A stretch of DNA of 64,000 nucleotides from an uncultured virus (IMG/VR IMGVR_UViG_3300021087_000002) (taxonomy: Duplodnaviria > Heunggongvirae > Uroviricota > Caudoviricetes): the IMG/VR virus record IMGVR_UViG_3300021087_000002. One strand, given 5' to 3'. The translations under genes and the position numbers were made by a program. The number at the start of each line of letters is the position of its first letter. Within the stretch, counting starts at the first letter, position 1. Positions 21,873-58,104 of this stretch are shown piece after piece. The notes below the pieces were generated by a model. That model was not told where the DNA came from. It saw only the letters and a list, made by a program, of their open reading frames with translations, and searched no databases.

Positions 21873-22535
21873 ATGAAAGTATGGACAGTAGTTAAACCAC
21901 AATCTTCTATTATGGAATTAGAAGATGCACAAGATATCATCAGTTATTGTGCTAGGGTATCTAACCCTGCAAATGAAATGAATACAAAGACTGCCGATAA
22001 GCTAATTAGATATTTGGTTAAGCATAAGCATTGGTCACCTTTGGAAATGGTTTCATGTACACTTGGTATCGAAACAACTCGTGACATTGCACGTCAACTT
22101 CTAAGGCATCGATCAATGTCATTTCAAGAGTTTAGTCAACGATATGCTGATCCACAAGATATGGAAAATGCATTTGTTCTTCGTGAAGCACGTCTTCAAG
22201 ATCCTAAGAACAGACAAAACTCTATTCCAAATGCCGATAGAGAACTTGCTAGAGCATGGAGAATGAAACAGGATCAAATCATTCACGAAGCTAAATTGGC
22301 ATACAATTGGGCAGTCTCTAACGGTATTGCCAAAGAACAAGCGAGATCTGTCCTACCCGAAGGAAATACTGTATCTCGTCTATTTGCAAACGCTACTTTG
22401 CGGTCATGGATACACTATATAGAATTGAGGTCTGGTAATGGAACTCAGCTAGAACATATGGAACTAGCTCGTGCCATTGCGGTAGAGATCGCATCAATCT
22501 TTCCAATGACAAAGGAGTTCGTAGCTGATGGGTAG
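21873..22535 (+). CDS. thyX: Flavin-dependent thymidylate synthase
   Basis: HWSPLE, RQLLRHRSMSFQEFSQRY, EQARSVLP. Confidence 0.95.
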   Translation: MKVWTVVKPQSSIMELEDAQDIISYCARVSNPANEMNTKTADKLIRYLVKHKHWSPLEMVSCTLGIETTRDIARQLLRHRSMSFQEFSQRYADPQDMENAFVLREARLQDPKNRQNSIPNADRELARAWRMKQDQIIHEAKLAYNWAVSNGIAKEQARSVLPEGNTVSRLFANATLRSWIHYIELRSGNGTQLEHMELARAIAVEIASIFPMTKEFVADG

Positions 22536-23266: not shown

Positions 23267-23890
23267 ATGGAAACAGAAAAAGTACCAGAACTACCTAAAT
23301 TAAAACTATTGATCATTGGACATGGTCGTCATGGTAAAGATACCGTTTGTGAACTTCTTAGAGATAGGATGGGTTACACTTTTGAAAGTAGTAGCCACTT
23401 CTGTTGTAAGCAATTCATTTACGATATGCTGAAGACAAAGTATAACTATAAAGATATGGAAGAGTGCTATGCTGATAGACACAACCATCGTGCTGAATGG
23501 TATGATGCGATTTGTGAATATAACAATAAAGATGCCGCTCGACTAGGTAGACAAATGTTTGAAGAGTATGATATCTACTGTGGTCTACGTAACAAACGTG
23601 AATTCTTTGCTATGCAGAATACAGGTGTATTTGATTTCTGTATCTGGGTTGATCGCTCAGATCATCTACCAGAAGAAGCTGATAACAGTATGAGCCTAAA
23701 GCAATGGATGGCAGACTTTACTATTGATAACAATGGTGATCTTGAAGAGCTAGAGTTCAACACACGTAACTTGATGGAACAGCTACATGGTGGTGTCAGT
23801 CATTTGATGAAGATGAGTACACCACAACAGCCTAACTTTGAAGAGGGTGGGTTCGATATCGACATGATGCAGTACGCCGCTCCTGTGTGA
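23267..23890 (+). CDS. Deoxynucleoside monophosphate kinase-like P-loop protein
   Basis: GHGRHGKDT Walker A, GLR..REF, ADFTIDNNG. Confidence 0.75.
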   Translation: METEKVPELPKLKLLIIGHGRHGKDTVCELLRDRMGYTFESSSHFCCKQFIYDMLKTKYNYKDMEECYADRHNHRAEWYDAICEYNNKDAARLGRQMFEEYDIYCGLRNKREFFAMQNTGVFDFCIWVDRSDHLPEEADNSMSLKQWMADFTIDNNGDLEELEFNTRNLMEQLHGGVSHLMKMSTPQQPNFEEGGFDIDMMQYAAPV

Positions 23891-23925
23891 TAATTGCCAC
23901 ACTAATACAAAAACTTCATAAGGGG

Positions 23926-23954
23926 TTTACACTTTTAGCTCCTTATGTTACTAT
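23926..23954 (+). promoter_or_regulatory. Promoter of the tmRNA operon
   Basis: TTTACA-17-TACTAT with TG extension, just upstream of the acceptor piece. Confidence 0.7.
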
Positions 23955-23960
23955 ATAAAC

Positions 23961-24023
23961 TGTAAACGTTGAAGCAACGTGAACGCATACTGGACTTGGG
24001 GGCAGTACCCAACTGCTCCACCA
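23961..24023 (+). ncRNA. ssrA: Two-piece (permuted) tmRNA, acceptor piece (5' end approximate)
   Basis: T-arm TTGGG-GGCAGTA-CCCAA (23996-24012), acceptor strand CTGCTCC, discriminator A, CCA at 24021-24023. Confidence 0.92.
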
Positions 24024-24043
24024 TAAATTATCGGAGTTATATT

Positions 24044-24244
24044 ATGAGTGATTATAAAGATTTGATTGACACCTTTTTAAAAAACGGTGGTGAAATCAAA
24101 AAAGGTAAACCTATGAAGCGCACCAAAGGTGTTAGTGTTCAAAAAATGCAAATAGATGCCCAGACCAAAGGTGATTATAAACAGTGGCAAAAGGGTGAAG
24201 ATAGTTACGAAGAATATCAAAACTATTTAAAAAGAAAACGATAA
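24044..24244 (+). CDS. 66-aa basic protein encoded inside the tmRNA intervening segment
   Basis: SD GGAG at 24033, ATG 24044, TAA 24242-24244; MSDYKDLIDTFLKNGGEIKKGK... Confidence 0.75.
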   Translation: MSDYKDLIDTFLKNGGEIKKGKPMKRTKGVSVQKMQIDAQTKGDYKQWQKGEDSYEEYQNYLKRKR

Positions 24245-24252
24245 TTTATGAT

Positions 24253-24416
24253 GGGGCAGAACTAGGATCGACAGGTGTTGTAGTGAAGTGGAGTTTACCG
24301 GGTGACTGCGAGATTGGTCAAATCACTAAATGCAAACAATAACTTTGCACCATCTGGATTACGCCTAGCGGCATAATCACAGGGGGTTGGCGACTTACCT
24401 AGCAACAGAAAAGTCG
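24253..24416 (+). ncRNA. ssrA: Two-piece tmRNA, coding piece; tag ANNNFAPSGLRLAA* at 24332-24376 (3' end approximate)
   Basis: GGGGCAG pairs with CTGCTCC including G3.U70; GGATCGAC D-loop motif; taaat-GCA resume context; tag ends LAA; 3' pairing cgactt/aagtcg. Confidence 0.92.
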
Positions 24417-24444
24417 TATTAACAATTAACAAGGACGAATAAGA

Positions 24445-25212
24445 ATGAAAACTTTAATCTCTTCTCTAGCAATGGTTGCTACAGCAAGTGTCGTAAATGC
24501 GGCAGATCTTGCAGTAGATGTTGATATTGACATCACAGAAAACACGGCGGGAAAATACACTGCCGCTAAATCAGTAGCACTAGATGTAACTGCCGTAGGC
24601 GATGCCTTTGGTTCAGTTGAAGTAGTTGCTGGATCAGATAACTCACTAAGCATTGGTGACTGGCATGTAGGTACAGCACTTGGCGCAACAAGCGTATCTT
24701 TTGGTAAGCAAGGAAACCTTTTTGTGGAAGGTGAAGCTTCTGCGGCAAACAGCCCACTAGCTAACCCATCAATGGGAACTTCAGCACAAATCGCTATCTC
24801 AGGTGCAAGTGTAGGTCTTTCTTTCACAGACATTGGCACAGATGTAACAGACGTTGCAAGTGTACAAGGTGCATATGAACTTACATTAGGTGGGGTTACA
24901 GCACAAACTTCTGCCGATTATAACATCGATACTAAAGAAATCGCAGTTGGTGCAGGCTTAGGAATTGAAGTACGTGACCAACATGTTGACACAGTAATGA
25001 CATATGCAAATGATGTGTGGGCATACGAAGGTTCAACAACACTTCTAGGTGTTACAGGTTACTTGAATGGTGACCAAAATGACATGACACAGAATGCAGG
25101 TGCATCTTACCTACTTGGTCTTAATGATGCCGCATCTATCGAAAGTAAACTTAATTATGACTTGAACAGTGAAGTACTTTCACCTTCAGTCAACCTATCT
25201 TTCTCATTTTAA
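24445..25212 (+). CDS. Outer-membrane beta-barrel/porin-like protein
   Basis: Signal peptide, alternating amphipathic strands, C-terminal VNLSFSF (terminal Phe). Confidence 0.75.
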   Translation: MKTLISSLAMVATASVVNAADLAVDVDIDITENTAGKYTAAKSVALDVTAVGDAFGSVEVVAGSDNSLSIGDWHVGTALGATSVSFGKQGNLFVEGEASAANSPLANPSMGTSAQIAISGASVGLSFTDIGTDVTDVASVQGAYELTLGGVTAQTSADYNIDTKEIAVGAGLGIEVRDQHVDTVMTYANDVWAYEGSTTLLGVTGYLNGDQNDMTQNAGASYLLGLNDAASIESKLNYDLNSEVLSPSVNLSFSF

Positions 25213-25956: not shown

Positions 25957-26304
25957 ATGGATATAGCCCAAGCCATAAAAGACTACGGCTTCCCTATTGT
26001 TGCCGCAGTTGGAATGGGCTACTTTATCTACTTTATTTGGAAGTGGGTTACGGAGACCATAGATCCAGTTATTGGTGAAACTATGGTTACGCTAATTAAG
26101 TTGGTAGACAGAGTACGTATGCTTGATAATGATATGATCAGACTCAACTCAAAGCTTTCTATTGTCCTAGAACATAGAGGTATGGACAAAGAGGTTGCAC
26201 AAAACCAGACCAAGAATGAGAAATTTAATACGAGTGGCGAAGAAGATGATATCAAAGAAGACCCTAAGCCTAATAGCTTTGGTGTTACTCCCAACACAAA
26301 GTAA
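25957..26304 (+). CDS. Single-TM coiled-coil protein
   Basis: YGFPIVAAVGMGYFIYFIW TM plus heptads. Confidence 0.75.
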   Translation: MDIAQAIKDYGFPIVAAVGMGYFIYFIWKWVTETIDPVIGETMVTLIKLVDRVRMLDNDMIRLNSKLSIVLEHRGMDKEVAQNQTKNEKFNTSGEEDDIKEDPKPNSFGVTPNTK

Positions 26305-26710
26305 CGCAGAATTACAGTTTACATTTAAGAACCCTGCCTTTAATGGGCAAGGATACTCTTCTCATGTATTATCCACTGAACAATTAGTGTTCAATAGGAA
26401 TAAAGATCGAAGAGATGAAATGGAAGCTGAAGCGAAACGCATTGAGCGTGAGTTAGAGAATACTACATTAAACAAATTTATTAAGAACCTTGAGAGTAGA
26501 ATATACGCAACACTGAGTAAACAGATGGTAGATTCTATGTTTGCAGAGTGTACAAGTGATGATTGTGCCACTAGCGGATCTACGGAGATTGAGGGAAGTA
26601 CGATTGAATGGTCTAAAGATTCAACTACAGGATCTATTACCCTAGTCATAACAAATGATGATGGTACTACAACGATTACTATTCCGGGATCAGGGGAGTT
26701 TAACTTCTGA
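26246..26710 (+). CDS. csgF: Curli assembly protein CsgF-like
   Basis: Signal peptide then ELQFTFKNPAFNG (CsgF N-terminal motif), FIKNLESRIYATLS, DGTTTITIP. Confidence 0.85.
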   Translation: MISKKTLSLIALVLLPTQSNAELQFTFKNPAFNGQGYSSHVLSTEQLVFNRNKDRRDEMEAEAKRIERELENTTLNKFIKNLESRIYATLSKQMVDSMFAECTSDDCATSGSTEIEGSTIEWSKDSTTGSITLVITNDDGTTTITIPGSGEFNF

Positions 26711-27504
26711 TGCGTTTTGTTTTGATTACGATTGTTTCACTTCTTATGGGGTGTGTAGACCCTAGCCAATATCCTCTTGGTGAAACTCCCAAGGTGCAAA
26801 GTTCTCCTAATTCGATTTCTGATTATGAACAGTTAGATGGAAAGAAAATGACCATTGCTGTTTATTCTTTTGCGGATAAAACTGGACAAAGGAAGCCTGG
26901 GAATTCGAGTTTAAGTAGTGCTGTTACCCAAGGTGCAGAAGTTTGGGTGATCAAGGCATTACAAGATGTTGGATCTGGAACTTGGTTTGAAACAGTTGAG
27001 AGAGTTGGTCTTGACAACTTGGTCAGAGAAAGACAGTTAGTTAGAAATACACGTGAAGTGTATGAAAAGGATTTGGCAAACGGACCCACACCACTCAAGC
27101 CTATGGTGTTCGCTGGATTAATACTTGAGGGTGGTATAGTTGGTTATGACTCAAGTGTAGCTACAGGTGGATTGGGAGCAAGGTATCTTGGTCTTGGGGT
27201 TCAGCAACAGTATAGAGTTGATACTGTAACAATTGTTATGAGATTAGTAAGTGTGAGCACTGGTAAAATATTACTAAGTGTAGCTACAGAAAAGAACATA
27301 GCAAGTCACCAAAGTGGTGCAGACGTATTCAGATTCTTTGATATGGGTACGAAACTTGTAGAAGCAGAATCTGGCTCTAGTGTGAACGAGCCAGTTAATT
27401 ATGCAGTAAGATCAGCAATAGAGGCTGGTGTGATTGAATTGATTAATGAAGGAGAAAAGAAGCAATTCTGGTCGTTTTTGGTAGACCCAAAAACAGGCGG
27501 ATAA
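26710..27504 (+). CDS. csgG: Curli secretion pore CsgG-like lipoprotein
   Basis: Lipobox LMGC; AVYSFADKTGQRKP, SSAVTQGA, VERVGLDNLVRERQLVR, NEPVNYAVRSAIE. Confidence 0.93.
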   Translation: MRFVLITIVSLLMGCVDPSQYPLGETPKVQSSPNSISDYEQLDGKKMTIAVYSFADKTGQRKPGNSSLSSAVTQGAEVWVIKALQDVGSGTWFETVERVGLDNLVRERQLVRNTREVYEKDLANGPTPLKPMVFAGLILEGGIVGYDSSVATGGLGARYLGLGVQQQYRVDTVTIVMRLVSVSTGKILLSVATEKNIASHQSGADVFRFFDMGTKLVEAESGSSVNEPVNYAVRSAIEAGVIELINEGEKKQFWSFLVDPKTGG

Positions 27505-58027: not shown

Positions 58028-58104
58028 GTTTCCTTAGCTCAGTTGGATAGAGCAAGTGCCTTCTAAGCACTAGGTCATAGGTTCGAATCCTATAGGGAAC
58101 ACCA
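58028..58104 (+). tRNA. tRNA-Arg (anticodon TCT)
   Basis: Full cloverleaf: GTTTCCT/AGGGAAC acceptor, AGTGC-CTTCTAA-GCACT, GGTTCGAATCC, encoded CCA. Confidence 0.96.

Follow-up and report, generated by a model that had tools for sequence, protein, structure and literature searches.

A protein-coding gene in the intervening segment of a permuted tmRNA gene from a marine T4-type phage

Can the segment that is discarded from a two-piece transfer-messenger RNA (tmRNA) also be a gene? This question is raised by a locus in a 64,000-nucleotide (nt) stretch of DNA from an uncultured virus of the Caudoviricetes (IMG/VR record IMGVR_UViG_3300021087_000002), hereafter referred to as the window. There, a permuted tmRNA gene holds between its two pieces an intervening segment (IVS) that is filled by an open reading frame (ORF) of 66 codons. 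The best overall explanation of the locus, which we regard as probable, is that of a tmRNA with a real gene cassette in its IVS that is translated on the nascent or unprocessed transcript.

The tmRNA itself is well supported. ARAGORN recognizes a single permuted tmRNA (tmRNA*) in the window, at 23928-24467 on the plus strand with the tag ANNNFAPSGLRLAA ending on a stop codon, and two Rfam models score above their cut-offs, i. e. tmRNA_permuted (RF04321; 87.0 bits against a cut-off of 47, 23962-24376) and alpha_tmRNA (RF01849; 86.5 bits against a cut-off of 50, 23929-24420). Hence, the assignment to a phage permuted tmRNA of the alpha type, made in a first-pass annotation of the bare sequence, is borne out by the tools it had named. 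In both Rfam models the T-arm, the acceptor strand and CCA are aligned, about 200 nt are then inserted, and the alignment resumes at GGGGCAG. The acceptor piece (T-arm, 3' acceptor strand and CCA) thereby lies 5' of the coding piece (5' acceptor strand and tag frame). The former (23962-24023, +, as delimited by the Rfam alignments, ARAGORN and the sequence) begins with the 5' strand of helix P2 (GTAAAC, 23962-23967, +), which pairs with GTTTAC (24293-24298, +) in the coding piece, and includes an uninterrupted T-arm (23996-24012, +; T-stem 23996-24000/24008-24012, loop GGCAGTA), followed by the 3' acceptor strand CTGCTCC (24013-24019, +), A24020 and CCA (24021-24023). The coding piece (24253-24420, +, with the 3' end given by the alpha_tmRNA model, or up to 24467 according to ARAGORN; 3' pseudoknot region included) begins with the 5' acceptor strand GGGGCAG (24253-24259, +), the site of ribonuclease P (RNase P) being expected at 24252/24253. 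It carries the tag reading frame GCA...GCA TAA (24332-24376, +, by ARAGORN), which starts on an alanine codon and has a hydrophobic ...LAA end before the stop. The alanine identity pair G3.U70 is present as G24255 opposite T24017, so that T-loop, CCA end, GGGGCAG, identity pair and tag are all found where the first reading of the sequence had placed them. Apart from the two tmRNA models, no RNA family, including group I introns, was matched at E<=1 in 23800-24600. The T-stem reads TTGGG/CCCAA in the window and CGCGG/CCGCG in two related viral contigs (L011 and L012), and due to these compensatory changes the tmRNAs of both look functional.

The IVS between the two pieces comprises 229 nt (24024-24252, +), represents the insertion in both Rfam models and is by family definition absent from the mature tmRNA. 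It is closed by a perfect 12-bp stem formed by the 5' arm CATAAATTATCG (24022-24033, +) and the 3' arm CGATAATTTATG (24239-24250, +), a feature seen in the first reading and in the predicted fold and recovered by an inverted-repeat finder, whose arms (24013-24033/24239-24259, 21 nt, 90% complementary) combine the acceptor stem with the 12-bp stem. The fold of 24015-24260 reaches -58.5 kcal/mol as compared with -38.7 +/- 4.0 kcal/mol in shuffles (z -5.0; 0/200 as good), and its excess energy stems mostly from the closing helix, as judged from the centroid structure. Inside this helix lies the gene for a small basic phage protein (MSDYKDLIDTFLKNGGEIKKGKPMKRTKG...; 24044-24244, +), which extends from ATG 24044 to TAA 24242-24244 and is preceded by the Shine-Dalgarno (SD) sequence GGAG (24033-24036, +) 7 nt before the ATG. 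The SD-led frame of 66 codons that fills the IVS is thus present in the sequence as first described, its stop lying 8 nt inside the IVS end. None of 300 dinucleotide shuffles of the identical IVS in another contig (L121) gave an ORF as long. In the window, an SD-type motif precedes 33 of the 76 long plus-strand ORFs versus 357 of 5000 random positions. The described contact of the stem with both signals of the gene is found as well: the first G of GGAG, and this G alone, lies in the 5' arm, and the 3' arm includes the final codon CGA together with the stop TAA.

Does this frame represent a gene? A large protein collection contains nine relatives of 65-70 amino acids (aa) with 71-98% identity, in which the core GGEIKKGKPMKRTKG is invariant and other replacements are conservative. 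The window protein displays the hallmarks of this family, i. e. an N-terminal DYxDL...NGG, the invariant GKPMKRTK core and a length of 60-70 aa. The family is small, with four representatives at E<=0.001 among 1.84 billion entries. No cultured phage with the protein was detected by tblastn in 50,697 phage records, and blastn of the locus returned no more than the four Melnitz records, which aligned through the coding piece alone (73%, with 25% of the query covered). Among viral contigs, 12 loci with the gene or its relatives were found. Three of these (L008-L010) are arranged identically to the window, and in L011 and L012 a gene with 95% protein identity is located inside a permuted tmRNA (57-59 bits in Rfam; missed by ARAGORN). 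In each of the six distinct viral contigs with an IVS-resident copy (L008-L012 and L121), the SD, the start codon and the stop codon are undamaged. The identical arrangement shared by four independent viral contigs argues against an assembly artefact at the junctions 24023/24024 and 24252/24253.

Other homologs are free-standing. Those of L013-L015 share 70-73% protein identity with the window gene; in the approximately 3-kb loci around L013-L016 no tmRNA was found by Rfam at E<=0.1, and the homologs of these four contigs are flanked by further coding regions, the following gene being overlapped by ATGA. Throughout, tmRNA absence was judged by this Rfam threshold instead of ARAGORN silence, because ARAGORN misses variant tmRNAs (L011, L012 and L260) that Rfam scores at 57-83 bits. 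In this variant (around 1709-1800 in L011/L012; 1500-1600 on the minus strand in L260), about 64 alignment columns of the coding piece are missing, and from its position between helix P2 and the tag frame the missing part is expected to be the first pseudoknot. The GGAG before the ATG is invariant in the alignment of the family (A2), free-standing homologs included. On the contig with free-standing L015, a separate permuted tmRNA (83.3 bits) lies at a distance of about 11 kb; in its IVS of about 80 nt no SD-led frame was seen by eye, an ORF scan not having been made. L016 carries a 1-nt deletion (around position 1517) that cuts off the frame after 23 codons and that is either a sequencing error or the mark of a decaying copy. 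In L018 and L019, 60-aa relatives are found behind a gene beginning MIDIYGTPTCSFC.

Since the window and L011/L012 share their junctions, the divergence between these copies arose while the gene was resident in the IVS. Their comparison yields a non-synonymous rate (dN) of 0.018, a synonymous rate (dS) of 0.335-0.383 and a dN/dS of 0.05-0.06, with the 12-13 differences distributed over the codon positions as 3:0:9-10; in a neutrality test, at most 3 non-synonymous changes out of 12 have a probability of P=1.5e-5 (33 synonymous and 165 non-synonymous sites). Between the window and the free-standing L013-L015, dN amounts to 0.174-0.177, dS to 0.788-0.839 and dN/dS to 0.21-0.22, with positions 12:6-7:23-25. 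At the level of sequence, these comparisons show the ORF to be a genuine protein gene that has been under purifying selection while in the IVS. The search for homologs and the dN/dS analysis proposed with the first-pass annotation thus speak for a real gene, given the conserved frame and SD and a dN/dS of 0.05-0.22.

The gene and its tmRNA do not share one history. In an alignment of the window with L011, the IVS matches at 94% across its 229 nt without any gap, whereas the upstream gene (41%), the acceptor piece (58%) and the downstream region (41%) are far less similar and the coding piece aligns at 83% with 64 gap columns. Conversely, L067, the closest tmRNA relative among the matches listed in the census described below, is 98% identical to the window in the acceptor piece and 83% in the coding piece (upstream gene 63%, downstream 50%), but has an unrelated, non-coding IVS of 82 nt. 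This mosaic pattern shows, on the basis of the alignments, that the IVS behaves as a cassette exchangeable between phages.

The IVS layout would be explained by tight packing of a gene that brings its own SD. In the window, the inner 5 bp of the stem (TATCG/CGATA) are formed by the flanks of the gene itself. The inner TATCG of the 5' arm also stands 5' of the SD in free-standing L013, where it is found ahead of GGAG and where the gene ends in CGATGA; in the window the stop is TAA and thereby completes the complement, the change presumably having gone in this direction. A ribosome-binding site built into the slot was considered as well, an idea that is weakened by the occurrence of GGAG with the preceding TATCG in L013.

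Is the window a singular case? The first-pass annotation knew of no other protein-coding IVS in such a tmRNA, and a census leads to a different picture. It is based on the first 120 viral and the first 120 bacterial exact matches to one acceptor-piece pattern, with at least 120 of each, and all counts in this and the following paragraph are among the matches listed. An IVS ORF was called significant if at most 15 of 300 dinucleotide shuffles were as long. Unparsed were 13 viral and 33 bacterial loci; an Rfam check, which covered 5 and 20 of these, respectively, returned short-IVS permuted genes or one-piece tmRNAs and no hidden long IVSs, and the remaining 8 viral loci offer at most 300 nt after CCA. 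Phages contributed 98 distinct IVSs with a median of 86 nt (41 of at least 100 nt and 19 of at least 150 nt), bacteria 82 with a median of 31 nt (1 of at least 100 nt and 0 of at least 150 nt). No significant ORF was detected in the 82 bacterial IVSs, including the single one of at least 100 nt, so that the earlier statement that bacterial IVSs are short and non-coding holds. In contrast, significant ORFs were detected in 20 of the 98 distinct phage IVSs (20 of the 41 with at least 100 nt) and belong to many unrelated families; the window is hence one case among several. All ten phage IVSs of at least 190 nt hold a sense ORF over 76-94% of the IVS that is equalled by at most 3 of 300 dinucleotide shuffles. 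Altogether, 38 IVS peptides fall into 25 clusters, one of which is partly an artefact of frames reading into the conserved tmRNA 5' end. In three other IVS families, changes are mostly found at third codon positions, and the IVS ORF of L065 exhibits 54% identity (E 2e-29) to Melnitz gene 84, which is located directly upstream of the Melnitz tmRNA. The 94-nt IVS of L116 begins with TAACCAATGGTCCAACTCCGGGGTTCGACTCCC, which looks like a tRNA T-arm and recalls the tRNA-Ala in an IVS that is mentioned in a tmRNA survey (PMC11915505).

Among the 24 ORF-bearing IVSs that were tabulated (L119 having a wrong start codon), 10 have their start at +18 to +20 after CCA, behind an arm of about 10 nt and GGAG or AGGA. 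The frame stops inside the IVS in 15 of the 24 and 13-105 nt into the mature tmRNA in the other 9; default stops in two of the three frames are provided by a conserved TGAT before GGGG and by a TAG in GAAATAGG. A closing stem of at least 8 pairs on from CCA, counted mismatch-free (an undercount) in IVSs of at least 25 nt, occurs in 39 of 85 from phages, irrespective of their coding content, and in 4 of 67 from bacteria. Judged from these loci, the closing stem is a general feature of phage IVSs and not specific to the window ORF, and the earlier view of it as a device of this ORF was not upheld. The variation that had been asked of the stem is found, with 27 distinct arm sequences in the 39 phage loci alongside the compensatory changes in the T-stem.

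How may a gene in this position be expressed? A sigma-70-like promoter (TTTACA-17 nt-TACTAT with a TG before the -10 hexamer; 23926-23954, +; 9/12 matches in a consensus scan) adjoins the 5' side of the tmRNA gene, and a comparable hexamer pair is found at the same alignment place in L011 and L012. No terminator-like site was found. For the tmRNA of Melnitz, a location directly behind an early promoter is described in the Melnitz paper (PMC9004378). The transcription start, the processing sites, the translated RNA species and the function of the protein are what we infer in the following. The IVS may be a tolerant slot, since the acceptor stem and its extension helix of about 10-12 bp would join the tmRNA halves whatever the loop holds, so that a gene could safely reside there without harm to the tmRNA. 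As in the two-piece tmRNA family, the IVS is presumably excised during maturation, and the conserved tmRNA ends on both sides could let whole IVS cassettes pass from phage to phage through recombination. The gene would be transcribed within the pre-tmRNA, starting from the promoter-like site on its 5' side. Its translation would then most likely use the nascent or unprocessed transcript while the stem has not yet been closed by the 3' arm, and an RNase P cut at 24252/24253 together with 3' trimming to CCA24023 would subsequently release the two tmRNA pieces. Opening of the translation start is predicted to cost 4.4 kcal/mol in nascent RNA lacking the 3' arm and 9.3 kcal/mol in the full precursor or the excised IVS, as compared with a median of 7.0 (quartiles 4.6-9.5) kcal/mol for the other genes of the window. 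Translation should therefore be easiest on the nascent RNA and still be possible later.

RNA libraries from 13 studies contain the stretch, and 16 runs hold at least half of the sampled words. Contigs that run without mismatch from the IVS into the coding piece were obtained from two of the four runs examined, spanning 24023-24434 (X12, record 5) and 24036-24292 (X19, record 18), while the contigs of X18 lack cover over 24037-24237 and are uninformative. At the loose end at 24023, run X12 also contains a contig with the T-arm and CCA of the window that continues with AAAGGAGATTGGTATG..., the start of a different IVS cassette (WSICADI membrane-peptide family). From this branch it follows that phages sharing one acceptor piece and differing in their cassettes occur together in a single sample.

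Several points weigh against translation of a real gene from the unprocessed transcript and have to be set beside the above. The selection test within the IVS draws on only 12-13 substitutions in two lineages. The promoter is a consensus match, 5 such sites having been found in comparison with 2.8 +/- 1.6 in shuffles. The RNA-library contigs show neither ends, strand nor levels and may result from DNA carry-over, and the start of the X12 contig at 24023 was rejected as a processing end, as it is an assembly branch point with the co-occurring phage. In the census, exact duplicates alone were removed, and its fractions are not population estimates. The protein has no match in Pfam (E<=0.1) or PHROGs other than a sub-threshold Pfam match to the SutA RNA-polymerase-binding domain, and its AlphaFold2 model, computed from an 11-sequence alignment, shows two helices around the invariant basic loop at low confidence (predicted local distance difference test, pLDDT, 62.8; predicted template modelling score, pTM, 0.24). 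Finally, the ORF in an excised IVS of Coxiella, the closest published parallel, appears to be untranslated (PMC4990558).

Other readings of the locus differ in what they make of the excised segment and of its product. The one put forward by the first-pass annotation holds that the excised 229-nt IVS, its ends clamped by the remaining 10 bp of the stem, acts as a stable mini-mRNA whose output is tied to tmRNA maturation. With the stop (24242-24244) inside the IVS, as in 15 of the 24 ORF-bearing IVSs (L119, with its wrong start codon, counted), the excised RNA would be a complete message; the SD is nearly entirely outside the stem, the opening cost of 9.3 kcal/mol is within the range of the window genes (upper quartile 9.5), and the paired ends could plausibly protect from exonucleases. 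However, 9 of the 24 frames run 13-105 nt into the mature tmRNA and would be left as non-stop messages, so that excision is not the general route. Moreover, the location of the SD inside the 5' arm in L115, L065, L041 and L080 favours translation before the stem forms, the RNA-library contigs provide no RNA ends, and the Coxiella 23S IVS RNA is reported to be quickly degraded once excised (PMC4990558). We therefore consider this mini-mRNA unlikely. The same parallel could suggest that the ORF is a silent passenger, i. e. a recent cassette that is tolerated in a discarded segment and unexpressed or decaying like the Coxiella S23p ORF (PMC4990558). The slot does accept inserts of similar length without a significant ORF (L124, L129 and L069), and the free-standing L016 copy has a 1-nt deletion. 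Yet the dN/dS of 0.05-0.06 between IVS-resident copies (P=1.5e-5) and the intact SD, start and stop in six IVS-resident contigs with canonical SD spacing make such silence very improbable.

That the open frame is a mere by-product of the conservation of a structured, non-coding IVS, and no protein gene at all, is scarcely credible: the IVS region indeed folds better than shuffles (z -5.0), but the closing helix supplies most of the excess energy, changes are biased toward third positions (3:0:9 and 12:6:25), and the amino-acid sequence is kept across contexts with different flanks. The opposite extreme would be a dedicated partner or modulator of trans-translation that targets tmRNA, SmpB or the ribosome and whose production is coupled to that of the tmRNA by its place in the IVS. 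This is suggested by the nesting of the gene in the tmRNA gene, by the invariant loop GKPMKRTK, whose Lys/Arg-rich sequence could bind nucleic acid, by the sub-threshold N-terminal resemblance of 10 of 11 members to the SutA RNA-polymerase-binding domain and by a language-model neighbour cluster with a score of 0.81, the latter being a lead only. In contrast, at least 25 unrelated peptide clusters occupy the same slot in other phages, homologs occur free of any tmRNA, with the tmRNA 11 kb distant in one contig, and no family, solved structure or confident fold ties the protein to translation. A role of this kind is thus quite improbable. The SutA match (PF20661) reaches 13.4 bits against a gathering threshold of 29.3, and all matches of the 10 of 11 family members are below threshold (best E 0.0088), i. 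e. a lead only. A Pfam scan revealed neither an endonuclease domain nor, at E<=0.1, a match to the S23p family; the best hit of a profile search against PDB sequences had E=1.3, and scores in a language-model atlas of at most 0.85 likewise represent leads only.

The preferred reading, a translated gene cassette in the IVS, combines features of several known systems. The window tmRNA shares piece order, GGCAGTA, G3.U70, CCA and the LAA tag end with the Caulobacter-type permuted tmRNA (RF01849, RF04321) and that of aquatic myophages, and differs in its protein-coding IVS of 229 nt from the bacterial permuted genes with their median IVS of 31 nt among the matches listed. Two-piece tmRNAs account for 53 ARAGORN calls among phage genomes, 50 of them aquatic, as reported in the Melnitz paper (PMC9004378), in which the word "intervening" is absent and the IVS undiscussed. 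The tmRNA match of phage HTVC008M extends over no more than 210 nt, too short to accommodate an insert of this kind, and the phiCbK paper does not mention tmRNA. Melnitz itself has an IVS of 142 nt with CATAAACACTT...AAGTGTTTATG around GGAG-N7-ATG and a frame that extends into the mature tmRNA by 42 nt. Its record (MZ577095.1; L001 2274-2726) contains no coding sequence (CDS) in the IVS, and the locus tags jump from _85 (tmRNA) to _88. Directly 3' of this tmRNA, a glutamine riboswitch aptamer (RF01739) is matched at L001 2688-2736 with 52.8 bits (cut-off 35), in agreement with the riboswitch 3' of the Melnitz tmRNA reported in the paper (PMC9004378). No RF01739 match was found in the window at E<=1 in 23800-24600.

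The Coxiella burnetii 23S rRNA IVS with its S23p ORF is reported to be excised by RNase III and rapidly degraded, its ORF being apparently untranslated and decaying (PMC4990558). It resembles the IVS of the window as a stem-closed segment in a stable-RNA precursor with an ORF inside, and it is excised without religation and horizontally acquired (PMC4990558); in the window the stem is present, and excision is deduced from the tmRNA family. Unlike the Coxiella ORF, that of the window has an SD and is under purifying selection, and the host RNA is a tmRNA, with ends expected from tRNA-processing enzymes. Inserts of another type are the group I introns in the T-loop of tmRNA genes, some of which carry LAGLIDADG homing endonuclease genes, as stated in the largest tmRNA survey (2025; PMC11915505). 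They, too, are foreign and sometimes coding, lie inside a tmRNA gene and are missing from the mature RNA; these introns are self-splicing, reside in one-piece genes and bring their own mobility enzyme, whereas the window ORF is an ordinary small phage gene. For IVSs of permuted genes, that survey reports only a tRNA-Ala gene and a repetitive element, and the terms "ORF" and "open reading" are absent from it (PMC11915505). No published protein-coding IVS in a permuted tmRNA gene was found in the literature searched, supplements excluded. The locus also recalls the tRNA-tufB operon of E. coli, in which an mRNA shares its transcript with tRNAs until RNase P/RNase E processing sets them apart. In both cases one transcript would give rise to a stable RNA and a translated message; the tufB coding region is located beside the tRNAs, whereas that of the window lies between the halves of one folded RNA, whose helix closes around it.

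The surroundings of the locus identify the window as DNA of a pelagimyophage/Melnitz-like marine T4-type phage. Long ORFs are found mostly on the plus strand (76 versus 10 on the minus strand). Genes for a cell-wall hydrolase, CsgF and CsgG are located near the tmRNA, and by reading, an ORF at 21873-22535 resembles the flavin-dependent thymidylate synthase (ThyX) annotated beside the Melnitz tmRNA. The context of this putative ThyX and of CsgF/CsgG (26195-27504) is shared with Melnitz and HTVC008M, the window CsgG being 52% identical to its counterpart in Pelagibacter phage HTVC008M and 49% identical to the one in OM43 phage Melnitz. Directly 3' of the tmRNA and upstream of CsgF/CsgG, a gene at 24445-25212 (+) encodes a protein of 255 aa with a signal-peptide-like N-terminus (MKTLISSLAMVATASVVNA), for which no Pfam or PHROG family was found. 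The only tRNA of the window is a tRNA-Arg (anticodon TCT) at 58028-58104 (+), found by ARAGORN and in Rfam with 71.7 bits.

Taken together, a selected gene in an IVS, a pattern that recurs with many unrelated genes in marine phages, would mean that the precursor of a stable RNA can double as an mRNA. Genes hidden under RNA features escape annotation, as exemplified by the Melnitz record without a CDS in its IVS, and in compact phage genomes, recombination can use conserved RNA ends as anchors when gene cassettes are exchanged. The locus also represents a natural test case for the competition among translation, RNA folding and RNase P processing on a single molecule, and the cultured pair of Melnitz and OM43 strain H5P1 offers an ORF-bearing IVS with the same layout. 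Conceivably, though we put this forward as a tentative idea that is rather doubtful, the phage IVS is a slot dedicated to the expression of small genes that come as exchangeable cassettes, in which one early transcript serves as a messenger first and as a stable-RNA precursor thereafter. The closing helix could then set the order, with ribosomes loading at the free 5' arm until closure of the stem stops translation and hands the RNA over to RNase P processing. If so, processing of those transcripts whose frames cross the cut site would generate a non-stop substrate of the adjoining tmRNA, and the window gene would be one well-behaved member of a general class of phage genes that lie unannotated inside RNA genes.

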